Numbered from the stretch's first letter, positions 17,851 through 29,681 are shown. The stretch is 64,000 bases of DNA from Novosphingobium sp. Chol11 (GCF_945870625.1 NZ_CAMBTS010000001.1:28432-92431); one strand, 5' to 3'. A program made the numbers and translations. Notes: a model not told the origin generated them from the letters alone.

Positions 17851-18873
17851 TCAGTTGGCCGAGAGCGCGGGCGGCTGGGCGGCGCCGTTCGGCGCACCAT
17901 ACGTGAAATGGCTGATGATCCAGTCGCGCAGCATGTAGATCGCCGGATCGGCTAGATCTTCGGTATGCGTCTTGAGGTAATAGCCGAAGCCGTCGCCGGA
18001 GATGCGGTCAAACGGCATGACCAGCTCGCCCTTGGCGATCTCCTGCGCGAACATGTCGATATCCGCGAGCACGACGCCTGACGCGCTCATAGCATAGCGC
18101 ACCGCCGAAAATGCGGTGTCAAAGGCAAGGCCATCGTTCGTGTCGATCGCTAGGCGCTGCTGATCGGCATAGCTGCTCCACAGCAGCCCGCGCGGCTCGC
18201 CCTCCAGCTTGACATGGAGCAGCTCGTTATCCTGCAGGAACTGTTCGAGGCCCTTGCCTTTATGCGCGTCTGCCGTGGCGGGCGAGCAGAGCGGCGCAAC
18301 CCGCACCATCCAGAGCAGATCGGCGACCTTGTCGTCCACATTGGGCCGATCAAACACGATCGCCATATCGACATTGGCCCTGGGTTCGCCGGTCACGTTC
18401 GACGAGGTGACGTCTATGCGCACCTCGGGATGCTCTTTGTGAAAGTCGCGGATCAGCGGCAACGCGTTCTGGTAGAGCAGCGATGGGGGAATGTGCAGCC
18501 GCAGCGGTCGGCTTTCGAGATCCTTGTTGCGGATCGTGTTGATCGTCTGCTCCATCCGGTCGAGGCATTTGCCGATGACCGGGAGCAGGATCGCGCCCGC
18601 AGGGGTCAGCTTAAGGCCAGTCGGCCCACGCTCGAACAAAGGCTTGCCGACAAGATCTTCGAGGCTGCTGACATGGCGGCTCATCGCGCTTTGTGAGACC
18701 GTCAGGGCCTGCGCGCCCCCGGTAAAGCTCATGTGGCGGCCCACGGCCTCAAACGCGCGCAAGGCGTTGAGCGGCAGCCAGCGTCGATTGATGAGGCGGT
18801 CGGTGGCTATCTGAATTTCTCCCTCGCTCGCAGCAGATTGCCCGCCGCATTGATCTACGTCAATGCGGGTCAT
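17851..18873 (-). CDS. LysR family regulator (GcvA/AmpR-like)
   Basis: WLPLNALRAFEAVGRHMSFT.GA..L.VSQSAMSRHV..LE HTH. Start uncertain; the SD points to 18810 (see findings). Confidence 0.9.
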   Translation of the reverse strand: MTRIDVDQCGGQSAASEGEIQIATDRLINRRWLPLNALRAFEAVGRHMSFTGGAQALTVSQSAMSRHVSSLEDLVGKPLFERGPTGLKLTPAGAILLPVIGKCLDRMEQTINTIRNKDLESRPLRLHIPPSLLYQNALPLIRDFHKEHPEVRIDVTSSNVTGEPRANVDMAIVFDRPNVDDKVADLLWMVRVAPLCSPATADAHKGKGLEQFLQDNELLHVKLEGEPRGLLWSSYADQQRLAIDTNDGLAFDTAFSAVRYAMSASGVVLADIDMFAQEIAKGELVMPFDRISGDGFGYYLKTHTEDLADPAIYMLRDWIISHFTYGAPNGAAQPPALSAN

Positions 18874-18944: not shown

Positions 18945-19901
18945 ATGCAACTGCCTCCCGAATTCGATTTCCATGCGCTCGAAGTGTTCGTCCTGACTGT
19001 CGATCTGGGCGGGATGACCGCGAGCGCGCAGCAACTGCGCATCACCCAATCGGCGGTTTCGCAAACCATCGCGCGGCTTGAACAGGGGATCGGCACGGTG
19101 CTGTTCGACCGGGCGCTGCGGCCCTTGGGGCTCACGCCTGCGGGGCGCGCGCTTTATGAGCGGGCGACGCGCCTTCTGGCCAGCGCGCGCGCTGTGGTTG
19201 ACGAGGTGCGCGAAGGCGCCAACCAGCCGATCGACAAAGTCACCGTCGGCATGTCGGAAACGGCCGCGATCCTCCTCACTGCGCCGCTCCTTGTGCAGCT
19301 TGGGCCGAAAGTTGGGCGCTGGCGCGTGCGATCGGGAATTTCGCTTAGTCAACAGCAGGATTTCCTCGCGCGGCGCTGCGACATGCTCGTGACCGGCAGC
19401 AGCGCGCTCGAAAAGCACGAGGGGATCGAGCATCATGATGTGCTCGATGATCCGTTCCTGCTGGTGTTTCCTAAGGATTATCGCGGCTTGGCCGATGATA
19501 TCGAAGCCATTCAAGGCCTTCCGTTCGTGCGGTATTCGCTGGAGACCGGGATGGGACAGCGGATCGAAAGTCAGCTTCTGCGGATGCGGCTGAGGCTGCC
19601 CAATGTGATCGAGGTGGAAAGCATTCACCAGCAGCTCAACTCGGTAACGCACGGGATTGGCTGGAGCATTACTTCGCTGCTGTGCCTTGCCGCCATGCCC
19701 GAGGTCATCCCTGATCTGCGGGTCGAGCCCCTGCCGCGCGCACGCTTTTCCCGGCGGATACAGGTCGTGAGCCGCGCGGGTGAGCTGGGCGATCTGGCTG
19801 TGCGCACCGCAGCGCTGGCAGGCGAAGTGATCCGCGAGCACAGCCTGCCGCCCGTTCTCGAACAGCTGCCATGGGCTAAAGACCTGATTGCGCTGACCTG
19901 A
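18945..19901 (+). CDS. LysR family regulator
   Basis: ALEVFVLTVDLGGMTASAQQL.ITQSAVSQTIARLE..IG..LFDR HTH plus substrate-binding domain. Confidence 0.92.
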   Translation: MQLPPEFDFHALEVFVLTVDLGGMTASAQQLRITQSAVSQTIARLEQGIGTVLFDRALRPLGLTPAGRALYERATRLLASARAVVDEVREGANQPIDKVTVGMSETAAILLTAPLLVQLGPKVGRWRVRSGISLSQQQDFLARRCDMLVTGSSALEKHEGIEHHDVLDDPFLLVFPKDYRGLADDIEAIQGLPFVRYSLETGMGQRIESQLLRMRLRLPNVIEVESIHQQLNSVTHGIGWSITSLLCLAAMPEVIPDLRVEPLPRARFSRRIQVVSRAGELGDLAVRTAALAGEVIREHSLPPVLEQLPWAKDLIALT

Positions 19902-20051
19902 TCCGGCAGGCACCCAGGGCATTACCGAAGTGAATATTATACATTAATTTATTTCATGGGCTGAATGAGAGATCGAAAAGGGCTAAACTTATTGGCCATC
20001 GCGGGTCTGCCATCACAGACCCCGATTTCGTCATTTTGAGCGGGTGTAACT

Positions 20052-21179
20052 ATGAATCTCATGACATCCCCGGTTACGGTCAAGGACAAGGGCCTTGAGG
20101 TTGCGCTGCCCAGCGGCGAATTGGCCTATTTCAATCATTATTGGCTGCGCGACAATTGCTCGACCTCGTTCGATCCCGAAACGCGCGAGCGGGTGTTCGA
20201 TATCTTTCATCTCGCGCAGCCGCCCCATCCATCTTCCGCGCACGTCGCCAATGGCGCGCTGGAAATTGTCTGGTCGGGCGAAAATCACACCAGCCGCTAT
20301 CCGCTTGGCTGGCTGGAAAGCTACAGCAAGGGCGAACGCCGCGCTGATCCGGCCGAACTGAAGCGTGTCTCGTGGTATGGCGATCATTACCCGAAGATGG
20401 CCCGCTTTGCCCATGCCGACCTGATGGCTGATCGCCAGCTGGTGGCGCAGTGGCTGCGCGCCATGCTGGTCGAAGGCGTGTCGCTCGTCACCGAGATGCC
20501 CGACAGCGATCAGGCGTTGACCGATCTGGTGAAATTGATGGGGCAGGTCCGCCCCACGTTCTTCGGCGACTATTTCGATGTGCGCACGCATATCGCGCCG
20601 ACCAATCTCGCTTACACCGCCAAGGCGCTGGAGCTGCACACCGATGTGCCGGCCGAAGACCTCGCCCCCGGCGTGCAGTTCCTGCATTGCCGCGCCAACA
20701 GCGTTGAAGGCGGCGAAAACCTGTTCCTTGATGGGCTGGCGGTGGCCAATGATCTGCGCGAACAGTTTCCAGAAGACTTCAAGCTGCTCTCCGAAACTGC
20801 CGTGCCGTTCTACTTCGAGCACGACAATCAGGATGTCCGCGCCCGCCAGCGGGTGATCGAGCTTGACGAAAACGGCGATGTGTCAGGCGTAACCATCAGC
20901 CAGCATATGGCCGATGTGTTCGATCTGCCGCAGCACTTCATGGACCGTTATTACCCGGCGTTCTGCCGTTTCGGGCGGATGTTGCAGGCCGACAAATACC
21001 TCATGCGGTTCCGGATTGCGGCGGGCGAATGCATCGTGTTCGACAACCACCGCATCGTCCATGGCCGCTCGGCTTATTCGGCGACCAGTGGTGATCGCTA
21101 TCTGCGCGGCACTTATGCCGATCGCGGCGAGATGCGCAGCACGTATCGCGCGCTCACCAGCAAAGGCCGCTTCGCATGA
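20052..21179 (+). CDS. Fe(II)/2-oxoglutarate dioxygenase, gamma-butyrobetaine/trimethyllysine dioxygenase-like (TauD family)
   Basis: N-terminal WLRDNC domain; facial triad LHTD...FDNHRIVHGR; N.AYT..ALELHTD and LRGTY.D motifs of the BBOX/TMLD family. Confidence 0.88.
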   Translation: MNLMTSPVTVKDKGLEVALPSGELAYFNHYWLRDNCSTSFDPETRERVFDIFHLAQPPHPSSAHVANGALEIVWSGENHTSRYPLGWLESYSKGERRADPAELKRVSWYGDHYPKMARFAHADLMADRQLVAQWLRAMLVEGVSLVTEMPDSDQALTDLVKLMGQVRPTFFGDYFDVRTHIAPTNLAYTAKALELHTDVPAEDLAPGVQFLHCRANSVEGGENLFLDGLAVANDLREQFPEDFKLLSETAVPFYFEHDNQDVRARQRVIELDENGDVSGVTISQHMADVFDLPQHFMDRYYPAFCRFGRMLQADKYLMRFRIAAGECIVFDNHRIVHGRSAYSATSGDRYLRGTYADRGEMRSTYRALTSKGRFA

Positions 21180-21904
21180 GCGATCTTGACGGCGAAGCGC
21201 TGCACCAGCTTCGCGTCGATCTGGCGGCGGCCTTTCGGCTGACCGCACATTTTGGCTGGCATGAATCGGTGGGCAATCATTTCAGCGCGGCGGTCTCTGA
21301 CGATGGTCGGCGTTTTTTGCTGAACCGCAAGTGGCAGCACTTTGCCTCGATCCGTCCCGATGATCTGATGCTGCTCGATGCTGGCGATGCCGATGTGATG
21401 ACGCGTAGCGATGCACCCGATGCATCTGCATGGACCATCCACGGTGCGATCCATCGCGAATGTACGAGGGCGCGGGTGATCCTGCATTGCCATCCGCCTT
21501 ATACCACCGCGCTGGCGACTTTGCGCGATCCCTCACTCCTGCCGCTCGACAACAACACCGCGCGGTTCTTTAATCGCGTCGGCATGGATCTGGAGTTTGG
21601 CGGGATCGCCGACGAGGCTGCCGAAGGTGCCCGGCTTGCCGCCTCGCTGGGCAATTACAAAACGCTGATGATGGGCAACCACGGCCTGACTTGCATCGGC
21701 GACACGGTGGCCGAAGCGTTCGAGGATCTCTATTTCTTCGAGCGCGCGGCGCAGACACTGATGCTGGCCTACGCCTCGGGTAAGCCACTCAATGTGCTAT
21801 CTGACGAGATTGCCGAGAAAACCGCGCAAGGGTGGGACGACTACAAAGGCATGGCCTTTGCCCATTTCGATTATCTCAAATCGACGCTCGGCGCGCTGAA
21901 CTGA
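21176..21904 (+). CDS. Class II aldolase/adducin family protein
   Basis: LAAAFRL...FGWHES..NHFSA, IHGAIH, LHCHPPY, MGNHG metal-binding His motifs; ATGA overlap with the dioxygenase. Confidence 0.88.
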   Translation: MSDLDGEALHQLRVDLAAAFRLTAHFGWHESVGNHFSAAVSDDGRRFLLNRKWQHFASIRPDDLMLLDAGDADVMTRSDAPDASAWTIHGAIHRECTRARVILHCHPPYTTALATLRDPSLLPLDNNTARFFNRVGMDLEFGGIADEAAEGARLAASLGNYKTLMMGNHGLTCIGDTVAEAFEDLYFFERAAQTLMLAYASGKPLNVLSDEIAEKTAQGWDDYKGMAFAHFDYLKSTLGALN

Positions 21905-21909
21905 CGCGC

Positions 21910-22989
21910 ATGACCGGCATTCCTGCCACCATGACCGCCGTGCTCATGACCGGCAATGGCGGCTTCGACAAGCTGGATATCCGCAGCGATGTGGCCGTGC
22001 CGGTCCCGGGCCCGGGCGCTGTGCTGATCCGCGTGGGCGCGGCGGGGGTTAATAACACCGATATCAACACGCGCACTGCCTGGTATTCAAAGTCTGTCGT
22101 CGCCGCGACCGAGGCTGGCGGCAGCGATGGCTTCGCCGAGGCGCGGACCGAGGATTCGGGCTGGGCCGGAAATTTGCCGCAATTCCCGCGCATTCAGGGG
22201 ACCGATGCCTGCGGCCGGATCGTGGCGGCGGGGCCAGGGGTGGACCCCGCGCGGATCGGCGAGCGCGTGCTGGTCGAGCCAGTGTTTCGCGGGGCAAGCC
22301 GGTTTGAGGCAACCTATTTCGGCTCGGAAGTCGATGGCGCGTTTGCAGAGTTTGCGCGTGTGCCCGCGATCCATGCGCACCGGATCGAGTCGGCGCTCAG
22401 CGATGCCGAACTTGCCTCGTTTCCCTGCGCCTATTCGGCTGCGGAGAATATGCTGACCAGAGCCAGGCTGGCCGACGGTGAGCGCGTGCTGATCACCGGC
22501 GCTTCGGGCGGGGTAGGGTCGGCAGCAGTCCAACTGGCGCAGCGGCGGGGCTCCAGCATCGTTGCCTTAGCGAGCGCTGACAAAGCCGACGCTGTGCTCG
22601 CATTGGGCGCGGCGCAAGTCTTGCCGCGCGATGCCGATCTGGCAGCCATATTCGGGCCGGATCATTTCGACGTGGTGATCGACATCGTTGGCGGCGCAGG
22701 CTTTCCCGCGCTGTTCCAGGTCTTGAAGCGCGGCGGGCGCTATGCCGCAGCAGGGGCGATTTCCGGGCCGATTGTCGAACTCGACTTGCGCACGCTATAC
22801 CTTAAAGACCTCACTTTGCTGGGGTGCACGATCCTCGAACCAGAGGTATTTCCAAACCTCGTCGGCTATATAGAGCGCGGCGAGATCCACCCTCTGGTAT
22901 CCGCGACATGGCCATTGGCGCAGATTGTCGAGGCGCAGCGCGCCTTCCTGACCAAACAGCATGTCGGCAAAATCGTCCTCATCCCCTGA
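21910..22989 (+). CDS. MDR-family alcohol dehydrogenase / quinone oxidoreductase
   Basis: VLIRVGAAGVNNTDI, PRIQGTDACG, ITGASGGVGSAAVQLA, GKIVL motifs; no structural-Zn Cys cluster. Confidence 0.85.
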   Translation: MTGIPATMTAVLMTGNGGFDKLDIRSDVAVPVPGPGAVLIRVGAAGVNNTDINTRTAWYSKSVVAATEAGGSDGFAEARTEDSGWAGNLPQFPRIQGTDACGRIVAAGPGVDPARIGERVLVEPVFRGASRFEATYFGSEVDGAFAEFARVPAIHAHRIESALSDAELASFPCAYSAAENMLTRARLADGERVLITGASGGVGSAAVQLAQRRGSSIVALASADKADAVLALGAAQVLPRDADLAAIFGPDHFDVVIDIVGGAGFPALFQVLKRGGRYAAAGAISGPIVELDLRTLYLKDLTLLGCTILEPEVFPNLVGYIERGEIHPLVSATWPLAQIVEAQRAFLTKQHVGKIVLIP

Positions 22990-23005
22990 AAGAAAGCTCC
23001 TTCTC

Positions 23006-23959
23006 ATGAAAATCGGATTTATCGGCCTTGGCAACGTTGGCGGCAAGCTGGCCGGGAGCCTGATCCGCAACGGCCATGATGTCACCGTGCGCGATCTCGA
23101 TGCCGGGCTGGTGGCCGAATATGTCGCGCGCGGCGCGGCCTCCGCCGATAGCCCGCGGGCGTTGGGCGAAGCGGTGGATGTGATCATCACCTGCCTGCCG
23201 TCCCCCGCCGCGAGCGCCGCCGTAGCCGAGGGCGAGGACGGGTTCTTGCAGGTGATGCGCCCAGGGCAGGTGTGGATGGAGATGAGCACGACCGACTATG
23301 CTGAAGTGCTGCGGCTCGGACCGCTGGTCGAAGCGCGCGGCGGCCTGTTCATGGAATGCCCGGTTTCGGGCGGGTGCCACCGTGCTGACACCGGCAACAT
23401 CTCGATCTTCGCCGCCGGCCCGCGCGAAGGGTTCGAGCGGGTGCTTCCCGTACTCACCACTTTGGGCCGCCGCGTGCTGCACACCGGCGATTGGGGCACC
23501 GCCTCGCAGCTCAAAGTCATGACCAATTTCCTGTGCACCGCGCACCTCGTCGCGCTCGCCGAGGCGCTGACCGTGTGCAAGGCGGTGGGTTTGGACATGA
23601 ACACGACTTACGAGGCGATCCGCATTTCGTCGGGCAACAGCTTTGTTCACGAAACGGAATCGCAGGTGATCTTGAACGGTAGCCGCGACATCAACTTCAC
23701 GATGGACCTCGTCTCCAAGGACGTCGGCCTGTTCGACAAGATCGCGCAGGAAACCGGCGTGCCAGTCGAAATGTCGCCGCTGATCGTGCGCCTGTTCAAG
23801 GAGGGCGAGGCCTCCTACGGCTCGCGCGAAAACTCGCCCAACATCATCCGCCGCTACGAAGAGCCAGTCGGCGTTAAAGTGCTGGGCACGGGCTTTCCCG
23901 AGCAGATGGTGGACGACGAGCCCGAAGAGCCAGGCTACGAAGTGGTGCCGCGCCGGTAA
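23006..23959 (+). CDS. NAD(P)-dependent oxidoreductase, 3-hydroxyisobutyrate dehydrogenase family
   Basis: KIGFIGLGNVG Rossmann motif, CPVSGG, catalytic Lys in LKVMTN, FTMDLV.KD. Confidence 0.87.
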   Translation: MKIGFIGLGNVGGKLAGSLIRNGHDVTVRDLDAGLVAEYVARGAASADSPRALGEAVDVIITCLPSPAASAAVAEGEDGFLQVMRPGQVWMEMSTTDYAEVLRLGPLVEARGGLFMECPVSGGCHRADTGNISIFAAGPREGFERVLPVLTTLGRRVLHTGDWGTASQLKVMTNFLCTAHLVALAEALTVCKAVGLDMNTTYEAIRISSGNSFVHETESQVILNGSRDINFTMDLVSKDVGLFDKIAQETGVPVEMSPLIVRLFKEGEASYGSRENSPNIIRRYEEPVGVKVLGTGFPEQMVDDEPEEPGYEVVPRR

Positions 23960-24102: not shown

Positions 24103-25731
24103 CTAACTGACCTGCGCCGCTGCGCGGATCAGGGCTGCGCCCTTTTCGGCGACCATGACCGTGGGCGCGTTGACATTGCCGGAGGTGATCGAGGGAAAGA
24201 TCGAGGCGTCAATCACCCGCAGATCTGCGATGCCATGCACGCGCAGCTGGTTGTCGACCACGCTGCGCGCTGGGTCGGTCCCCATCATGCAGGTCGAGGT
24301 GGGGTGGTAGACCGTGTCGGCGCGGGCGCGAAAATCTTCTAGCAGGCTGTCCTCGTCGGCGCATTGCGTGCCCGGCACAAGCTCCTCGGTGATCACTTCT
24401 GAGAGCGGGCGGCTTTGCGCAATCTGGCGCAGCAGGCGAACCCCAGCGCGCGCTTCGGCCACATCCTGTTCGGTGGCCAAATAGTTTGGGTGGATGGCAG
24501 GCTTGGCAAAGGGATCGGGTGAAGCAATCGCGAGGTGCCCCCTGCTGGTCGGTCGGCAGCTGTTGAACGAAAGCAGAAACGCAGGGAAAGGATCGGGATT
24601 GAGCAGCCGCCGCGATGCGAGCGGGGTCTTGGTGTAGCTCACCGGGCTGAAGTAAAGCTGCAAGTCAGGCCGGGCCAAATCGGGCGACGAGCGCACAAAG
24701 CCGCCGGCCTGGTTGACGCTCATCGAGAGTGGCCCGTGCCGGTTGAAAAGATAATGCAAGGCCGCCCAAGCCTTGCCGCGAAAGGGGCCCAGCTCGTTGT
24801 TCAAGGTCGGCACTGAGGTGCGATAGAAATAGCTGACGGCAAGGTGATCCTGCAGGTTTTGTCCGACCGCTGGATTGTGATGCACCACCGCGATACCTTG
24901 CTGGCGCAAGGTTTCCCCATCGCCGATGCCCGAATGCTGTAGCAGATGCGGAGAGCCAATCGCGCCTGCGCACAGGATCACCTCGCGGCGCGCGCGAATC
25001 ACCTTCTCGCGCTTGCCTTGTCGGTACGCGACACCGACCGCGCGGCCATTTTCGATCAGCACGCGGGTGGCCTGTGTATGCTTCATCAATTTAAGATTGG
25101 CGCGGCGGCGCGCGGGCCAGAGGTAGGCGTTGGCAGTCGAGGCGCGCCAGCCGCCGCGCGTGTTGATCTGATAGATGCCGAAGCCTTCGCCTGCCGGACC
25201 ATTGAAATCGCGCGTTTCGGGAAAACCCATTTCGCGGCCCGTGCTCAAAAACCAGTCGCACAAGGGATGTACATGGCGGCTGATGTCGGTCACGTGTTGT
25301 GGTCCGCCCCGGCCGTGCCGGTCGCTCGGGCCCAGATCATGATCTTCCGTGCGAATGAAAAAGGGCAGCACGTCGTCCCAGCTCCAGCCGATGTTGCCTG
25401 CCGCGCGCCAATCCTCAAAATCATGCGGAAAGCCGCGCACATGGACCATGGCATTGATCGAGCCCGATCCGCCGATTACTTTGCCCCGCGGCCAATAGCT
25501 GCTGCGCCCGCCCAGCGCCGCAATCGGCTGAGTATCGAACATCCAGTTGATCTTGGGATCGAAAAACGTCCGGCCATAGCCGATCGGCAGCTGAATCCAG
25601 ATCGACATGTCCGATCCGCCCGCTTCAAGGAGCGCGACTTTGACGTCTGCGTTTTCGGTCAGGCGGCTGGCCACCACGCAGCCAGCCGTGCCCGCGCCAA
25701 CGATGACGTAATCGGCTTCTTCGGTGTCCAT
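24103..25731 (-). CDS. GMC oxidoreductase (choline dehydrogenase-like)
   Basis: DYVIVGAGTAGCV, WPRGKVIGGSGSINAM, VGQNLQDH, YHPTSTC, GNVNAP motifs. Confidence 0.92.
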   Translation of the reverse strand: MDTEEADYVIVGAGTAGCVVASRLTENADVKVALLEAGGSDMSIWIQLPIGYGRTFFDPKINWMFDTQPIAALGGRSSYWPRGKVIGGSGSINAMVHVRGFPHDFEDWRAAGNIGWSWDDVLPFFIRTEDHDLGPSDRHGRGGPQHVTDISRHVHPLCDWFLSTGREMGFPETRDFNGPAGEGFGIYQINTRGGWRASTANAYLWPARRRANLKLMKHTQATRVLIENGRAVGVAYRQGKREKVIRARREVILCAGAIGSPHLLQHSGIGDGETLRQQGIAVVHHNPAVGQNLQDHLAVSYFYRTSVPTLNNELGPFRGKAWAALHYLFNRHGPLSMSVNQAGGFVRSSPDLARPDLQLYFSPVSYTKTPLASRRLLNPDPFPAFLLSFNSCRPTSRGHLAIASPDPFAKPAIHPNYLATEQDVAEARAGVRLLRQIAQSRPLSEVITEELVPGTQCADEDSLLEDFRARADTVYHPTSTCMMGTDPARSVVDNQLRVHGIADLRVIDASIFPSITSGNVNAPTVMVAEKGAALIRAAAQVS

Positions 25732-25739
25732 TTTGAGCC

Positions 25740-26927
25740 TCAGTGAACCGGGTGCTGCGTCATCTCGAGATGCAGCATCGTGCCTGTGTAGGGATTGGCG
25801 CGCGCCACTTCTTCGTTCAGCTCGACGCCCAGCCCGGGCGCGGTGGGCGGAATGACATGGCCCTGCTCGAACTGCATCGGGGTTTTCAGGATATCGCTGT
25901 GAAAACCGCCCCATTCCTCGATGCTTTCAAGGATGAGGAAATTGGGCGAACACGTCGCCAGCTGGACATTGGCCGCGCCGACGACCGGGCCGCAATAGAG
26001 ATGCGGCGCGATCTGGATATGGCGCGCCTCGGCCATGCCGGCGATCTTCTTGGCCTCCAGAAGCCCCCCCACGCGGCCAAGGTTCATTTGGAGAATGGCG
26101 GCGCTGCCTGCTTCGATCAGACGGGCAAAGTCATACTTGGTGGTCAGACGTTCGCCCGTCGCGATAGGAATGCTGGTCGCGCGCGCGACTTTGGCCATTT
26201 CTTCGGGCGCATCGGGGGGAACGGGTTCTTCGAGCCAAAGCGGGTCATAGGGCTCTAGCCGCTTGGCCAGACGGATTGCGCCGGCAGCGGTCATCTGGCC
26301 ATGCGTTCCGAACAGGAGATCGGCCTTGGTGCCCACCGCTTCGCGCAAGGTCCGCGCAAAACGCTCGCTCAACTCCAGCGCTTCCAATGACAATTGGCGC
26401 CCGTCAAACGCGGTGTAGGGCCCGGCAGGATCGAACTTGAGCGCGGTAAAACCCATATCCAGATACTCGGCGGCGCGGATGGCCGCGAGATCGGGGTCGT
26501 GATAAACGTCGGTTTGATCGCCGGGGCGCGGATAAATGTAAGTGTAGGAGCGGAGCCGCTCGTGTACTTGCCCGCCGAGCAGCTTGTAGACCGGCTGATT
26601 GGCTGCCTTGCCGACGATGTCCCAGCACGCCATTTCAAGCGCGCTCAGCACGCCCATCAGCGAGAGATCGGGATGCTGGGTAAACGCGCTGGAATAGACC
26701 CGCCGCCACAGCGCTTCGATATTGTGCGGATCGATGCCGGCGGCGTAACGCGCAAACACGTCCTCGATCATCTTGGCAACCAGATGCGGCGAAAACGGCA
26801 CGCAATAGGCCTCGCCGATCCCCGAGATGCCATCGTCCGTGGTCAGTTTGACGAAAACGAAATAGCGCCCGCCGAAATGTGGCGGCGGATTGCCGACCAC
26901 GAATGTCTCGATATCGGCAAGCTTCAT
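25740..26927 (-). CDS. Mandelate racemase/galactonate dehydratase-like enolase superfamily protein (atypical active site)
   Basis: GIGEA, SALEMACWDI.GK...PVY.LLGG, KFD, WLEEP, TGERL, APH, P..PGLGVE motifs. Confidence 0.9.
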   Translation of the reverse strand: MKLADIETFVVGNPPPHFGGRYFVFVKLTTDDGISGIGEAYCVPFSPHLVAKMIEDVFARYAAGIDPHNIEALWRRVYSSAFTQHPDLSLMGVLSALEMACWDIVGKAANQPVYKLLGGQVHERLRSYTYIYPRPGDQTDVYHDPDLAAIRAAEYLDMGFTALKFDPAGPYTAFDGRQLSLEALELSERFARTLREAVGTKADLLFGTHGQMTAAGAIRLAKRLEPYDPLWLEEPVPPDAPEEMAKVARATSIPIATGERLTTKYDFARLIEAGSAAILQMNLGRVGGLLEAKKIAGMAEARHIQIAPHLYCGPVVGAANVQLATCSPNFLILESIEEWGGFHSDILKTPMQFEQGHVIPPTAPGLGVELNEEVARANPYTGTMLHLEMTQHPVH

Positions 26928-28381
26928 GATGCGCGGAAGCCGTTCACGACCTTGACTTCGAGGAAGTCATGCAGGCCAAATTCGCCCCATTCGCGCCCGT
27001 TGCCCGATTGCTTGTAGCCGCCGAACGGCGAACCATAATCCTGACCCGCGCCATTGATGTGCACGCTGCCTGCGCGCACCAGCCGCGCGACGCGCCGCGC
27101 TTTGTCGAGATCGTCGCTCTGGACATAACCTGCCAGACCATAGGGGCTGTCGTTGGCAATCGCGATGGCTTCCGCCTCGTCGGCAAAGGGGATCATGACC
27201 AGCACAGGCCCGAAAATCTCCTCCTGCGCCACCGTCATCTGGTTGGTCACATCGGCAAACACGGTGGGCTTCACGAAATAGCCCTGCTCGAAGCCTTCGG
27301 GCTTGCCCGGACCGCCCGCGACCACGCGCGCGCCTTCGGCAATGCCCGCCTCGATCAAACGCTGGATCTTGGCGAAATGGACTTTGCTGACCACAGGGCC
27401 GATGTGCTTGCCCGGCTCACGCGGATCGCCGACCTTGATCTTGTCCGCAGCCGCAGCTGCGAGCGCGACCGCTTCGTCATAAACCGAGGCTTCGACCAAC
27501 ATGCGGGTCGGCGCGTTGCACGATTGGCCAGCGTTCTCGAAGCAATGGCGCACCCCGCGCGCGATCGCTTTGGGCAGATCGGCGTCGGCAAAGACGATGT
27601 TGGCCGATTTGCCCCCCAGCTCTTGCGAGACGCGCTTAACCGTCTCGGCCGCCGTCTTGGCAACATGGACGCCCGCACGGGTCGATCCGGTGAACGAGAC
27701 CATCTCGACCAGCGGATGCCCGGTCAGCGCATCGCCGATCCCGGCGCCGGTGCCGTGGACCATGTTGAACACGCCTGCGGGAAAGCCCGCCGCATCGATG
27801 AACTCGGCGAAAAGCTGCGCCGAGAGCGGGGCGATTTCGCTGGGCTTGAGCACCATCGTGCAGCCTGCAATCAGCGCGGGGCCGATCTTCGCGGCGAGCT
27901 GGTTGATCGGCCAATTCCACGGGGTGATCAGCACGCACACGCCTACTGGCTCGTGCACCAGCATGGCATGGCCGCCCATCGGCTTTTCCCATGCCATCGC
28001 GCGCGCCGCGGTGATCGTCTCGCGCAAATGGCCGGGTCCGCATTCGGCCTGCGCATCGCGCGAGAGATCGAGCGGCGCGCCCATTTCGGTGGTGATCGCG
28101 GTGACCATTTCGTCATAGCGTGCTTCGAACACCGCGATCAGCTTTTCGGTGAGCGCGATCCGTTCATCAAGGGTGAGCGCGGCAAAGCCACCGAAGGCGG
28201 CATGCGCGGCGCGCACCGCCCGGTCGGCATCGTCCGGGCCGCACAAGGCAACTTGCGCGCAGACGTCCTCGGTTGCCGGATTGATGGCTTCGAAGATTTC
28301 GCTTGAAGTGGCGGGCAGCGTCCATTCACCGCCGATGTAGGACTTAAGCAACTGCACGGGGGAGTTCGTCGACATAACCAA
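26924..28381 (-). CDS. Aldehyde dehydrogenase
   Basis: ITPWNWP, LKPSE, SFTGST, ELGGKS (Glu), GQSCNAP (Cys), EEIFGPV, YGL, PFGGYKQSG motifs; start 28381 or 28375. Confidence 0.95.
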   Translation of the reverse strand: MVMSTNSPVQLLKSYIGGEWTLPATSSEIFEAINPATEDVCAQVALCGPDDADRAVRAAHAAFGGFAALTLDERIALTEKLIAVFEARYDEMVTAITTEMGAPLDLSRDAQAECGPGHLRETITAARAMAWEKPMGGHAMLVHEPVGVCVLITPWNWPINQLAAKIGPALIAGCTMVLKPSEIAPLSAQLFAEFIDAAGFPAGVFNMVHGTGAGIGDALTGHPLVEMVSFTGSTRAGVHVAKTAAETVKRVSQELGGKSANIVFADADLPKAIARGVRHCFENAGQSCNAPTRMLVEASVYDEAVALAAAAADKIKVGDPREPGKHIGPVVSKVHFAKIQRLIEAGIAEGARVVAGGPGKPEGFEQGYFVKPTVFADVTNQMTVAQEEIFGPVLVMIPFADEAEAIAIANDSPYGLAGYVQSDDLDKARRVARLVRAGSVHINGAGQDYGSPFGGYKQSGNGREWGEFGLHDFLEVKVVNGFRAS

Positions 28382-29681
28382 TGGCTCGTTTCTGATCAGC
28401 TACGATGTACTTCGCAGCCATGAAATAGTGGAACGCGGCCCAGAAGCCGGTCGGCGCGAGGATGAGCAGGGCCGAACGCAGCGAGGCGGCGTCTGGCCCG
28501 GCGGGGCCGGCGAAGTAATCGCTGAGCATGCCGACGCCTTGCGGCGCGACAATCAGGTTGAACACGTTGGCGACGAGCAGCGCGATGGCACTGAACATCG
28601 CGCGCATCTTGGGCGGTGCGAGGTTTTGGCCCAGCGCGAAGGCAGGGCCGATATAGAAATAGATGCCGGGGATGAAGAGCCAGAGCGAGATCGTCGCGAT
28701 GGTCAGGGAATTGGTGTAAAATGCCAGGATCGAGGGGATTGTGGCAGCCACCGTTACCCCGCCCAACAGGTAAACAATTCTGCGCGGATCGACATAGGAC
28801 GGCCGCCCCAGCAGCCAAGCGGTGAGCAGCGAAGCGCCGATGCCCATGACCAGATGAATCGGGCCGACGATGCCGCCCGCTGCGCCGACGTCAAGATTGT
28901 ACGTGCGCTGGAGGAATGTTGGCGTGAACCACATCAGCCCCCAACCCCACAGCGCCGAAACCCCGCTGCCCATCATCACATGCACTGCGGCGCGCTGGCT
29001 GAGGCAGAAGCGCAGGGTTTCGCCGAGCGTTGGCGATTTATCGGTATCGACCGCGTCAAGCTGACCGCGCTTCGGCTCTTTGATGGTCGCCATGATGAGC
29101 AGAGCAAGAAAGACGCCCGGAATGCCGAGCACGAGGAAGGCCGCCCGCCAGCCATATGCATGCGCGACTGCGCCTGCCATGTCCGCGCCGAGCCATGCGC
29201 CGATCGGTGCGCCGAGGCAGAAGATCGTCATCGCCATCGGGCGGCGCGCGGCCGGAAAGTAATCGCAGATGATCGACGTGCACGAAGGCGTTCCGCCCGC
29301 TTCGCCGATACCAACCCCCATGCGCGCGAGCAGCAAGGTCGTATAGCTGCGCGACAGGCCGCACAGCGTGGTCATCAGCGACCATAGCGTGATCGACACC
29401 GCGAGGAGATTGCGCCGGTTCGAGCGGTCGGCGATCCACGATAGCGGGATGCCCATGGTGACATAGAACAGCGCCAGTGAGACGCCGGTGAGGAAGGCGA
29501 CGCCGCCATCACTGAGATTTAGCTCGAGCCGGATTTCCTCGAGCACGGTGGACATGACGTAGCGATCGGCGATGTTGATCGTGTAGGCCAGCATCATGAT
29601 CATCAACACATACCAGCGCAGCGCAACCGAGGCGGATGCTTCGCCCGCCGGGACGTCATTTGCCGTGCCGATACCCGCCAT
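28344..29681 (-). CDS. MFS transporter (spinster-like)
   Basis: YTINIADR, IADRSNRRNLL, ARMGVGIGEAG motifs; 12-TM pattern. Confidence 0.9.
   Translation of the reverse strand: MAGIGTANDVPAGEASASVALRWYVLMIMMLAYTINIADRYVMSTVLEEIRLELNLSDGGVAFLTGVSLALFYVTMGIPLSWIADRSNRRNLLAVSITLWSLMTTLCGLSRSYTTLLLARMGVGIGEAGGTPSCTSIICDYFPAARRPMAMTIFCLGAPIGAWLGADMAGAVAHAYGWRAAFLVLGIPGVFLALLIMATIKEPKRGQLDAVDTDKSPTLGETLRFCLSQRAAVHVMMGSGVSALWGWGLMWFTPTFLQRTYNLDVGAAGGIVGPIHLVMGIGASLLTAWLLGRPSYVDPRRIVYLLGGVTVAATIPSILAFYTNSLTIATISLWLFIPGIYFYIGPAFALGQNLAPPKMRAMFSAIALLVANVFNLIVAPQGVGMLSDYFAGPAGPDAASLRSALLILAPTGFWAAFHYFMAAKYIVADQKRAIGYVDELPRAVA

Follow-up and report, generated by a model that had tools for sequence, protein, structure and literature searches.

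Novosphingobium sp. Chol11 carries a gene for a putative Fe(II)/2-oxoglutarate (2OG) hydroxylase that overlaps a gene for a class II aldolase-fold protein, which raises the question of what compound the two enzymes process and by what chemistry. A preliminary description of the 64,000-nucleotide stretch analysed here (the window) had proposed a carnitine-biosynthesis-like route on a trimethylammonium substrate, with trimethyllysine-type hydroxylation, cleavage by a metal aldolase and aldehyde oxidation. The gene content it gave for positions 20052-23959, a dioxygenase, an overlapping aldolase-fold gene, an MDR and a beta-hydroxyacid dehydrogenase, agrees with the open reading frames and with Pfam. 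All four genes lie head to tail on the + strand. The locus is laid out as follows.

17851-18873, - strand: LysR-family regulator, GcvA / choline-sulfate-regulator-like, divergent from the operon side (Pfam HTH_1 and LysR_substrate)
18945-19901, + strand: second LysR-family regulator, directly upstream of the dioxygenase gene and co-directional (Pfam HTH_1 and LysR_substrate)
19902-20051, + strand: A+T-rich intergenic region, presumed from its sequence to be the promoter/operator of the operon
20052-21179, + strand: Fe(II)/2OG hydroxylase of the two-domain BBOX/TmpA/DfmD family, separate subfamily (375 aa)
21176-21904, + strand: adducin-type class II aldolase-fold three-His metalloenzyme, proposed scission enzyme (242 aa; NCBIfam PRK07490)
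21910-22989, + strand: MDR-superfamily oxidoreductase, quinone/enoyl-reductase type, sphingomonad-only accessory (Pfam, NCBIfam)
23006-23959, + strand: beta-hydroxyacid (HIBADH-family) dehydrogenase, sphingomonad-only accessory (Pfam, NCBIfam)
24103-29681, - strand: convergent four-gene unit (MFS, ALDH, MR_MLE, GMC), found with the pair in Sphingomonadales only
24103 to about 25737, - strand: GMC/choline-dehydrogenase-like oxidoreductase of this unit
25740-26927, - strand: MR_MLE enolase-superfamily protein of this unit
26924-28381, - strand: ALDH of this unit
28344-29681, - strand: MFS transporter of this unit

The first two genes of the operon share 4 nt, the ATGA at 21176-21179 serving as both start and stop. 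The MDR reading frame opens at 21832 and has an ATG at 21910, 5 nt past the aldolase-fold stop codon; the HIBADH frame opens at 22961, with an ATG at 23006, 16 nt past the MDR stop. The Pfam domains of the four products are TauD and GBBH-like_N, Aldolase_II, ADH_N and ADH_zinc_N, and NAD_binding_2 and NAD_binding_11, respectively. A consensus sigma-70 site was not found in the 19902-20051 intergenic region. Against NCBIfam models, the divergent LysR protein scores 178 bits for the GcvA subfamily and 151 bits for chol_sulf_TF, in both cases below the cut-off.

The dioxygenase belongs with the two-domain Fe(II)/2OG oxygenases BBOX, TmpA, TMLD and DfmD, whose triad, 2OG arginine and two domains it possesses. 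It matches Pfam TauD with 135 bits, and its N-terminal GBBH-like (DUF971) domain, PF06155, scores 26.7 bits for a cut-off of 22.8. The HxD...H facial triad, already described as intact, consists of H196, D198 and H337 (H202, D204 and H347 in BBOX), and R349 aligns with the 2OG arginine R360 of BBOX; these four residues are invariant in an alignment of 40-43 sequences. The AF2 model (pLDDT 92) matches TmpA, BBOX and DfmD over approximately 370 columns (TM of 0.87 with the BBOX-type entries 3ms5, 3o2g and 4bg1), and the next-best fold has an E-value of 1e-11. TmpA (6npb) is the closest structure both by sequence (E 2.8e-56, 32% identity) and by Foldseek (2.6e-36). Each of these three solved neighbours acts on N-trimethyl substrates.

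The protein is nevertheless outside every curated family of known function to which it was compared. It scores 294.3 bits against NCBIfam TmpA (NF049936, cut-off 400), 285.5 bits against gamma-butyrobetaine hydroxylase (TIGR02409, cut-off 414.75) and 175.7 bits against trimethyllysine dioxygenase (TIGR02410, cut-off 268.3). The last is the weakest of the three matches and caused trimethyllysine dioxygenase to be rejected as an identity, which also leaves the trimethyllysine-type hydroxylation first envisaged without support. Many orthologues are automatically annotated as gamma-butyrobetaine dioxygenase. However, of the BBOX-type Cys3His zinc site, the WLRDNC motif region keeps C36 and H79 alone; the single remaining Cys noticed initially is C36, the two others being absent. 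The GBBH-like clades of the same alignment, unlike the dioxygenase clade, carry CxCxxC. An isofunctional GBBH was therefore rejected on the basis of its score, its reduced zinc site and the replacement of BBOX N293 by Q284. TmpA was likewise rejected, given the score, an N185/Q284/H285 site instead of N187/N287/R288, and the lack of an HD-domain TmpB gene downstream. The tree recovers the dioxygenase sequences as a monophyletic clade (100/100) whose stem is 2.5 substitutions per site long. Identity to other clades does not exceed 40%, and the clade stands apart from the Cys-rich GBBH-like clades, nearer to the TmpA-like clade.

Pocket residues were placed through alignment only. In these terms, aromatic residues F171, F175, Y188 and Y355 occupy the cage positions of BBOX Y177, W181, Y194 and Y366. 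Kept aromatic positions, and the N-trimethyl substrates of the solved relatives, make a trimethylammonium substrate plausible. The acid-binding residues of BBOX and TmpA are named in PMC9296572; N185 corresponds to BBOX N191 and TmpA N187, Q284 to BBOX N293, and Q284/H285 to TmpA N287/R288. This last replacement fits a substrate whose acid group is not a dianionic phosphonate. The clade also has two extra invariant arginines, R214 and R352, a glutamate (E202) in place of a TmpA Arg, and the specific residues E256/H257 and S283/Q284/H285. R214, R352 and E202 hint at a substrate charge pattern different from that of plain beta-alanine betaine, perhaps with a second carboxylate.

The partner protein falls within NCBIfam PRK07490 (NF005689), a family without a name or an assigned function, with 346.6 bits for a cut-off of 260. 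Its three metal ligands are H104, H106 and H169. In FucA, Glu73 and Tyr113' are catalytic and Asn29, Thr43, Gly44, Ser71 and Ser72 bind phosphate (PMC11841055). The Glu73 position reads A85 (PDASAW) here, as the preliminary description had cautioned, and two of the five aligned phosphate positions are kept (N34 and S84). A FucA-type aldolase was rejected because of these changes, although the three His are present. One qualification concerns E150, which is invariant and lies 19 residues ahead of H169. Pyruvic oxime dioxygenase (POD) has Glu164 19 residues before His183, and this Glu is reported to take the place of Glu73 in space (PMC11841055). The identical spacing suggests that the acid may be relocated rather than lost, and E150 may be a general acid/base of the sort that an aldolase or lyase needs.

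The model of this protein (pLDDT 96) has 3ocr, an entry with no assigned function, as its top match, followed by POD, NovR and TqaM, ahead of HMPD decarboxylase and FucA. The nearest solved relatives with known function are therefore POD, NovR and TqaM, three-His Fe(II) oxygenases. Their Foldseek TM values are 0.81-0.89, compared to 0.70-0.72 for FucA-type aldolases, and the FucA entries are the most distant among the matches listed with an assigned enzyme activity. NovR, 3ocr and 4xxf have Ala or Gly at the Glu73 position when aligned with the partner protein. With three His, no Glu73 carboxylate and a close fold, the protein groups structurally with NovR/CloR, TqaM and POD. By sequence and model, its resemblance is weakest to true FucA aldolases and strongest to this O2-dependent group. 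This weakens the idea of a metal aldolase as the second enzyme and favours a CloR/NovR-like oxidative enzyme, which had been raised as a caveat. The fold also includes decarboxylases (OtnC, PhtC, HMPDdc), a dehydratase (MtnB) and true aldolases.

Comparison of loci indicates which genes belong together. The aldolase-fold gene lies directly downstream of the dioxygenase gene in 68 of 80 alphaproteobacterial loci, spanning Sphingomonadales, Rhizobiales, Rhodobacterales and Kiloniellaceae, and the 4-nt overlap is kept in 56 of the 66 loci where it could be measured. This conserved adjacency and translational coupling, extending over four orders, show the two genes to be a functional couple. Eleven loci with enough downstream sequence have no aldolase-fold gene; the five of these genomes that were searched held only a paralogue (49-58% identity), located elsewhere. 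The conserved unit comprises the dioxygenase, the aldolase-fold gene and a LysR regulator only, the regulator being the sole other conserved neighbour outside sphingomonads. Rhizobiales and Rhodobacterales have a single divergent LysR gene rather than two. In Novosphingobium loci, orthologues of the 17851-18873 regulator occupy the same place and are 82-96% identical; those of the 18945-19901 regulator are 80-93% identical. No transporter was conserved with the pair among the loci compared, and neither a carnitine dehydrogenase nor a BKACE gene was linked to it in any of the 80. The pair is thus a conserved, uncharacterised two-enzyme unit, here in a lake sphingomonad.

The MDR, HIBADH, GMC, ALDH, MR_MLE and MFS genes accompany the pair in Sphingomonadales only, and ALDH, MDR and HIBADH are missing from most of the loci, so the ALDH step of the carnitine analogy is not supported. 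The convergent unit still adjoins the pair, in rearranged order, at seven loci (L046, L048, L051, L062, L066, L070, L075). The MDR is zinc-less, with GTDACG where zinc ADHs have GHE; its best NCBIfam matches, all far below cut-off, are the PIG3 quinone oxidoreductase subfamily and crotonyl/acryloyl-CoA reductases. Across Novosphingobium loci whose dioxygenases are 76-78% identical, HIBADH identity is 94-97%. Betaine-type neighbours in sphingomonads include a GbcA-like Rieske oxygenase, a BetA-like GMC and the choline-sulfate-regulator-like LysR; the transporter there belongs to the anion-type MFS proteins rather than to the BCCT or betaine ABC systems.

The position after the hydroxylase gene is itself informative. 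In the TmpA-like sister clade, an HD-domain TmpB-like gene is directly downstream in 7/7 genes sampled. In the dioxygenase clade, the aldolase-fold gene takes its place, and no HD homologue was found in the window. Moreover, aldolase-fold paralogues at 46-54% identity adjoin three other hydroxylase classes: PhyH (L111, L112, L115/L144, L116, L122), membrane di-iron FA_hydroxylase (L127, L131, L133), and Rieske and GMC (L109, L143). Some of these loci also carry amino-acid-type ABC transport genes or a GbdR/CdhR-type AraC regulator.

Hydroxylation followed by cleavage is the likeliest logic of the pair. Family membership and conserved ligands suggest that the dioxygenase, with Fe(II), 2-oxoglutarate and O2, would hydroxylate a small betaine-type acid. 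If TmpA and BBOX are a guide, the target carbon would be one removed from the N+-bearing carbon, and beside the acid group if the substrate is the size of 2-trimethylaminoethylphosphonate (TMAEP). The coupled genes, the swapped partner and the structural neighbours suggest that the aldolase-fold enzyme then breaks the product, filling the place of the HD-domain oxygenase TmpB after TmpA. Like TqaM and NovR, this enzyme would most likely use O2 to decarboxylate a 2-hydroxy-3-ammonio acid oxidatively, with non-oxidative retro-aldol cleavage and trimethylamine elimination as live alternatives. For example, beta-alanine betaine would give its 2-hydroxy derivative, then glycine betaine and CO2. Beta-alanine betaine is produced in marine communities (PMC9321204); no documentation of it was found for freshwater sphingomonads or soil rhizobia. 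The MDR, HIBADH, GMC, ALDH, MR_MLE and MFS proteins would be lineage-specific additions that feed or drain the core. As a whole, a LysR-controlled catabolic unit that hydroxylates a small trimethylammonio acid and cleaves the product, perhaps by oxidative decarboxylation to glycine betaine, is our leading but tentative reading, with a chance somewhat short of even. Of the carnitine-like scheme it retains the coupled pair, the plausible trimethylammonium substrate and hydroxylation before cleavage; its succession of trimethyllysine hydroxylation, aldol reaction and ALDH is not supported.

The second enzyme could instead be a genuine metal-dependent retro-aldolase acting on a beta-hydroxy product such as 3-hydroxy-trimethyllysine or a 3-hydroxy-2-trimethylammonio acid. 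Cleavage would yield an aldehyde and either glycine or glycine betaine, and in sphingomonads the aldehyde would pass to ALDH, HIBADH or MDR. The intact three-His site, an E150 that may stand in for Glu73 as in POD, the tight coupling, and the ALDH and HIBADH genes adjoining the pair in Sphingomonadales would suit this scheme. A85, the largely altered phosphate site, the lower TM values to FucA-type enzymes, the weak TMLD match and the absence of ALDH and HIBADH from most loci make it unlikely. To our knowledge, moreover, no metal aldolase of this fold splits a beta-hydroxy amino acid or betaine. Still more doubtful is a substrate other than a quaternary amine, the clade having taken on some other small polar acid (amino, guanidino or sulfonium). 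The very long stem, the clade-specific residues, the anion-type MFS, and the pairing of paralogues with PhyH and amino-acid-type ABC transporters would accommodate such a substrate. Aromatic residues at 4/4 aligned cage positions, the N-trimethyl substrates of 3/3 solved relatives and the betaine-type neighbours in sphingomonads speak against it.

Two further possibilities are each very improbable. If the dioxygenase were a bacterial gamma-butyrobetaine hydroxylase making L-carnitine, its partner would act on carnitine or 3-dehydrocarnitine, for instance as a beta-keto-acid decarboxylase, an activity that OtnC, PhtC and HMPDdc bring within reach of the fold. The frequent annotation, the 285-bit GBBH match, and an Arctic SAR11 island that groups two BBOX genes with a class II aldolase, CDH, BKACE, HADH, ADH, ALDH and CHDH (PMC12421898) are in line with this role; a score far below the cut-off of 415, a position in the tree closer to TmpA, the Gln at BBOX N293 with differing adjoining pocket-strand residues, and the lack of linked carnitine genes in the 80 loci are not. 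TauD-type enzymes are able to expel leaving groups via hydroxylation, so trimethylamine might leave when the N-bearing carbon is hydroxylated; or the aldolase-fold enzyme might eliminate it, turning a 2-hydroxy-3-ammonio acid into pyruvate. The second enzyme would then be a lyase, isomerase or oxo-acid decarboxylase, not an oxygenase. The presence of MtnB and beta-keto-acid decarboxylases in the fold would allow this, and the GMC, ALDH, HIBADH and enoyl-reductase-type MDR of sphingomonads would suit three-carbon oxo/hydroxy acids. However, the carbon that BBOX and TmpA hydroxylate lies one position beyond the N-bearing one, and both retain the amine (PMC9296572, PMC8177086), and no trimethylamine-handling genes are linked.

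Among known systems, human BBOX1, Pseudomonas sp. AK1 GBBH and trimethyllysine hydroxylase share with the dioxygenase the fold, triad, 2OG arginine, aromatic positions and WLRDNC motif. The zinc site, the Gln at N293, the clade-specific arginines and the unlinked carnitine genes distinguish it from BBOX/GBBH, and a catabolic role is likelier for it than a biosynthetic one such as that of BBOX/TMLD. FucA has the fold and metal histidines of the partner but differs in Glu73 and the phosphate site. TqaM (fungal 2-aminoisobutyrate pathway) and NovR/CloR (aminocoumarin) belong to the same fold subgroup (TM 0.85-0.89, HMMER E 1e-16 to 1e-14), with three His and Ala or Gly at the Glu73 position. In their pathways an oxygenase step comes first and they then work on an alpha-hydroxy acid, as proposed for the aldolase-fold protein, and the TqaM substrate, judging from its pathway, would be a beta-amino alpha-hydroxy acid with the skeleton of the product proposed here. 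However, identity is only 22-24%, and the invariant residues D82, D125, N127, T128, R130, D138, D146, W220 and H230 are absent from them. They are biosynthetic and fungal or actinomycete, whereas the present gene is LysR-regulated and proteobacterial, its iron and O2 dependence being predicted only.

The TmpA/TmpB system of Leisingera caerulea, which converts 2-trimethylaminoethylphosphonate to 1-hydroxy-TMAEP and then to glycine betaine and phosphate, is likewise a two-gene unit in which a BBOX-family Fe/2OG hydroxylase precedes a cleaving enzyme, and N185 matches TmpA N187. It differs in that TmpB is an HD-domain diiron oxygenase, not an aldolase-fold three-His protein, and in the acid site, the family score and the separate long-stem clade of the dioxygenase. 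Since phosphonate genes are not linked to the pair, a C-P substrate is unlikely. PhnY/PhnZ, acting on 2-aminoethylphosphonate, use another cleaving enzyme and probably attack another bond (C-P, compared to C-C or C-N here), but follow the same hydroxylate-then-cleave order. PhnY is a PhyH-family dioxygenase, and the PhyH pairing of the aldolase-fold paralogues mirrors the PhnY/TmpA duality.

The dioxygenase and the aldolase-fold protein open a run of four tightly packed genes on the + strand of the window (20052-23959), in which the ATG of the aldolase-fold gene overlaps the stop codon of the dioxygenase gene (ATGA at 21176-21179). The preliminary description of this sequence proved right at every point that could be checked, including its remark that the position of the FucA catalytic Glu is not occupied by Glu in the aldolase-fold protein; the alignment places an Ala there.

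Genes of the cluster, their surroundings and paralogues in the same genome (G000)
17851-18873, - strand: first LysR regulator, upstream of the pair
18945-19901, + strand: second LysR regulator, upstream of the pair
20052-21179, + strand: dioxygenase, 375 aa, Pfam TauD and GBBH-like_N
21176-21904, + strand: aldolase-fold protein, 242 aa, Pfam Aldolase_II
ATG at 21910, + strand: MDR (medium-chain dehydrogenase/reductase), starting 5 nt past the aldolase stop
ATG at 23006, to 23959, + strand: HIBADH-type dehydrogenase, starting 16 nt past the MDR stop
24103-29681, - strand: convergent unit downstream of the pair (MFS transporter, ALDH, MR_MLE protein, GMC oxidoreductase)
Beyond the convergent unit 24103-29681: GbcA-like Rieske oxygenase and Cys/Met-family PLP enzyme
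G000:C9:823-1461, G000:C27:23503-24108 and G000:C150:1795-2607: three paralogous genes, two aldolase-fold and one TauD-type

The GMC open reading frame as listed, 24103-25914 (-), shares 175 nt with the MR_MLE gene, and Pfam matches it only from residue 68 onward; its true start is probably near 25737. Elsewhere in the genome, the two further aldolase-fold paralogues show 38% and 29% identity, and the one further TauD-type gene (30% identity) lies inside a 591-aa open frame.

A scan limited to one genome for each species yielded 241 dioxygenase relatives, and the best 80 of these 241 loci were examined. These 80 are alphaproteobacterial throughout, with dioxygenase identities of 64-95%. The aldolase-fold gene lies directly 3′ of the dioxygenase gene in 68 of the 80, and the 4-nt overlap is found in 56 of the 66 loci with both gene ends readable. 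The pair is put at more than 200 species genomes of Alphaproteobacteria, rhizobia, agrobacteria and roseobacters among them, adjacency having been counted in the best 80 loci. The MDR, HIBADH, GMC, MR_MLE, ALDH and MFS genes join the pair only in Sphingomonadales, where they are still adjacent despite changes of order or strand (L046, L048, L051, L062, L066, L070, L075). In Rhizobium, Yoonia and others, the pair and a divergent LysR gene sit amid unrelated housekeeping genes, without a transporter. Among the 80 neighbourhoods, only LysR is conserved beside the pair outside Sphingomonadales, with neither a transporter nor a downstream pathway. The conserved unit, the pair plus LysR, is smaller than the four-gene cluster first noted. 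Because LysR is the sole conserved neighbour outside Sphingomonadales, gene context does not name the substrate; the neighbourhoods of the closest dioxygenase paralogues (L086, L087) gave no clue to it. In 11 loci with enough downstream sequence, LysR and the dioxygenase occur without an adjacent aldolase-fold gene; five of these genomes were searched, and each holds only an aldolase-fold paralogue of 49-58% identity elsewhere. Exact-protein look-ups of two roseobacter orthologues gave no recorded entry. Databases name the pair "gamma-butyrobetaine dioxygenase" or generic TauD enzyme, with "class II aldolase", annotations that are probably misleading.

The dioxygenase scores below the curated cut-off of each of three characterised isofunctional families (TmpA, 294 against 400; GBBH, 285 against 415; TMLD, 176 against 268). 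By sequence, TmpA (6npb, E 2.8e-56) comes closest among solved structures, with human BBOX and DfmD next. The same three lead the matches of its AF2 model (pLDDT 92), no other being better than E 1e-11. The substrates of TmpA, BBOX and DfmD are N-trimethyl compounds (PMC8177086, PMC9296572). Two of 300 sampled genomes of the phylum hold orthologues of 59% identity or more, the next-best matches reaching at most 40%. In a maximum-likelihood tree the dioxygenase clade has support of 100/100 and a stem of 2.5 substitutions per site, and stands apart from both the TmpA-like and the Cys-rich GBBH-like clades. The clade alignment shows no variation in the iron triad (H196/D198/H337) or in R349, the arginine that binds 2OG. 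Residues F171, F175, Y188 and Y355 align with BBOX Y177, W181, Y194 and Y366, which we take to be the trimethylammonium cage. Pocket positions were assigned by alignment and the roles of acid-site residues were taken from the DfmD paper, which gives the acid binders as N191/N293 in BBOX and N187/N287/R288 in TmpA (PMC9296572). Their equivalents in the dioxygenase clade, N185, Q284 and H285, are all invariant. Moreover, R214 and R352 are clade-specific invariants, and E202 replaces a TmpA Arg. We read this pattern as a dioxygenase that probably keeps sites for a cationic head and for an acid group and has become adapted to a different acid, one that would not be a dianionic phosphonate and may bear an extra negative charge; the extra arginines R214 and R352 discourage being specific about the substrate.

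The aldolase-fold protein lies above the cut-off of NCBIfam PRK07490 (346.6 against 260), a family without assigned function. The metal ligands H104, H106 and H169 are invariant, and the Ala at the FucA Glu73 position is shared with NovR, 3ocr and 4xxf. In pyruvic oxime dioxygenase (POD), Glu164 is said to fill the place of Glu73 (PMC11841055); the invariant E150 of the aldolase-fold protein has the same spacing to the third metal His. With the AF2 model (pLDDT 96), the top Foldseek match is 3ocr, a structure without assigned function, followed by POD, NovR and TqaM (TM 0.81-0.89); 4xxf, HMPD decarboxylase and adducin rank lower, then FucA (TM ~0.70-0.72). POD, NovR/CloR and TqaM are three-His Fe(II) enzymes using O2, and NovR/CloR and TqaM decarboxylate alpha-hydroxy acids oxidatively (PMC13111500, PMC12816470). 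The family-specific invariants D82, D125, N127, T128, R130, D138, D146, W28, W53, W86, W220 and H230 would suit a cationic substrate with a carboxylate. Long open reading frames around some paralogues were considered as fusions and rejected, Aldolase_II being the only domain found.

Two comparative facts carry most weight: the exchange of an HD-domain for an aldolase-fold partner, and the occurrence of aldolase-fold paralogues beside other hydroxylases. In the TmpA-like clade, an HD-domain TmpB-like gene lies immediately 3′ of the dioxygenase gene in all seven sampled cases, the HD-domain proteins sharing 58-80% mutual identity. In the clade of the window's dioxygenase the aldolase-fold gene holds that position, and no HD homologue was found in the window. 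Sister clades of one hydroxylase family thus have different enzymes next in line. About 22 of 300 sampled genomes hold members of the aldolase-fold subfamily at 46-54% identity. Paralogues stand beside PhyH-type Fe/2OG dioxygenases (L111, L112, L115/L144, L116, L122), one such locus also having an amino-acid-type ABC transporter and LysR, and beside membrane FA_hydroxylase di-iron proteins (L127, L131, L133). A metagenome contig carries a Rieske oxygenase, a GMC oxidoreductase and an aldolase-fold gene as an operon with overlapping stops and starts (L109:86-3626); in a complete genome the same three genes occur together (L143:8357-13322) and adjoin a GbdR/CdhR-type AraC regulator carrying a DJ-1/PfpI domain. 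This placement does not hold for all aldolase-fold members, L146 being an example. The repeated hydroxylase neighbours say that the subfamily acts on products of C-H hydroxylation.

The island of the window likewise has a GMC and a Rieske gene. In addition, members of an aldolase-fold clade of ~50% identity have as flanking genes a CobW/COG0523 metallochaperone-type GTPase and a HAD hydrolase (L120, L123, L124, L125, L128, L129, L130; L123, L124, L125, L129 and L130 are from one genus, g20). These neighbours hint at assisted metal loading of the aldolase-fold protein, and the HAD and aldolase-fold neighbours recall the fungal pair of a HAD protein (TqaF) and TqaM.

We regard the sphingomonad additions as genes, specific to the lineage, that would feed or drain a quaternary-amine island. 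The MDR carries GTDACG where zinc alcohol dehydrogenases have GHE, and is probably of the ene-reductase type, since its best matches are quinone and enoyl-CoA reductases. HIBADH is 94-97% identical among Novosphingobium loci, where the dioxygenase and aldolase-fold genes reach only 74-80%, reflecting either unusually strong constraint or recent exchange. At a locus of a different family (L101, G236:C17:195857-208930), orthologues of HIBADH (77%), MDR (56%), the LysR of 17851 (63%), the GbcA-like Rieske oxygenase (52%) and the Cys/Met PLP enzyme (61%) are grouped around another BBOX-like paralogue (34%), and the aldolase-fold gene is absent; these genes therefore form a separate module associating with BBOX-family enzymes. 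The MR_MLE protein (25740-26927, -) has LFGTHGQ where galactonate dehydratases carry the first metal Asp. Orthologues of 52-55% identity with the same motif occur in two Rhodobacterales genomes (L100, 4059-5378, -, and L102), in operons with a TmpA-like dioxygenase, an HD-domain protein, a Zn-ADH and an MFS transporter. This enolase-superfamily branch thus travels with BBOX-family hydroxylases of two clades. A similar set is found in an Arctic SAR11 island: two BBOX, class II aldolase, HADH, ADH, ALDH, CHDH, CDH and BKACE (PMC12421898).

The comparison establishes that the two genes are coupled, to which families they belong, that their metal and cosubstrate sites are intact and that the partner enzyme has been swapped. 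The dioxygenase would hydroxylate a small trimethylammonio acid, on the TmpA and BBOX analogy at the carbon one removed from the N-bearing carbon, and the aldolase-fold enzyme would then break the hydroxylated product. For this second step we favour TqaM-type chemistry, in which a 2-hydroxy-3-trimethylammonio acid would undergo oxidative decarboxylation and yield glycine betaine and CO2; the TqaM substrate, judged from its pathway, is presumably a beta-amino alpha-hydroxy acid. TqaL was considered as a BBOX-like analogue of the dioxygenase and rejected, as the literature places it in PF10014; therefore only the TqaM half of the TqaL/TqaM analogy holds. Retro-aldol cleavage, elimination of trimethylamine to give pyruvate and decarboxylation of an oxo acid are other possible second steps. 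Beta-alanine betaine, which is produced in marine communities (PMC9321204), is only an example of a substrate, chosen for that origin and because its chain length is that of TMAEP. The full proposal, namely that the aldolase-fold protein works with Fe(II) and depends on O2, turning the dioxygenase's 2-hydroxy product into glycine betaine and CO2, and that its subfamily is a general cleavage partner acting after hydroxylation, is tentative and rather doubtful as a whole.

Quaternary amines, among them betaines, carnitine and choline derivatives, serve as major osmolytes and as sources of C and N in soil, plants, lakes and the sea. We know of no genes for the fate of several quaternary amines, including beta-alanine betaine. 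The literature searched assigns no function to the pair, contains no genes for beta-alanine betaine catabolism and makes no functional link between a BBOX-like enzyme and a class II aldolase, the sole match being the Arctic SAR11 gene list (PMC12421898). Once shown, the function of the pair would correct annotations, add a step to the betaine network and assign a role to the large aldolase-fold subfamily made up of PRK07490 and its neighbours, a recurrent hydroxylase companion. Were the second step oxidative, this protein would be the first of the NovR/TqaM type to serve bacterial catabolism and a case of convergence with HD-domain oxygenases. If the full proposal were true, beta-alanine betaine, or a trimethylammonio acid related to it, would reach the betaine pool by a new route of two enzymes, and the subfamily would have been enlisted by four hydroxylase classes unrelated to one another (BBOX-type, PhyH-type, Rieske and membrane di-iron).

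The pair had been interpreted as a coupled hydroxylate-then-cleave system with chemistry like that of carnitine biosynthesis. This interpretation is supported in part. Coupling and partner swap favour the former; the TMLD score and the restriction of ALDH to Sphingomonadales speak against the latter. By analogy, the pair appears to be a conserved hydroxylase and putative scission enzyme working in the manner of TmpA/TmpB, and is a member of neither the TmpA/TmpB system nor carnitine biosynthesis. Under the full proposal, the aldolase-fold protein would play the part for carboxylate betaines that TmpB and PhnZ play for phosphonates, and the favoured net reaction would be the carboxylate version of that of TmpA/TmpB.
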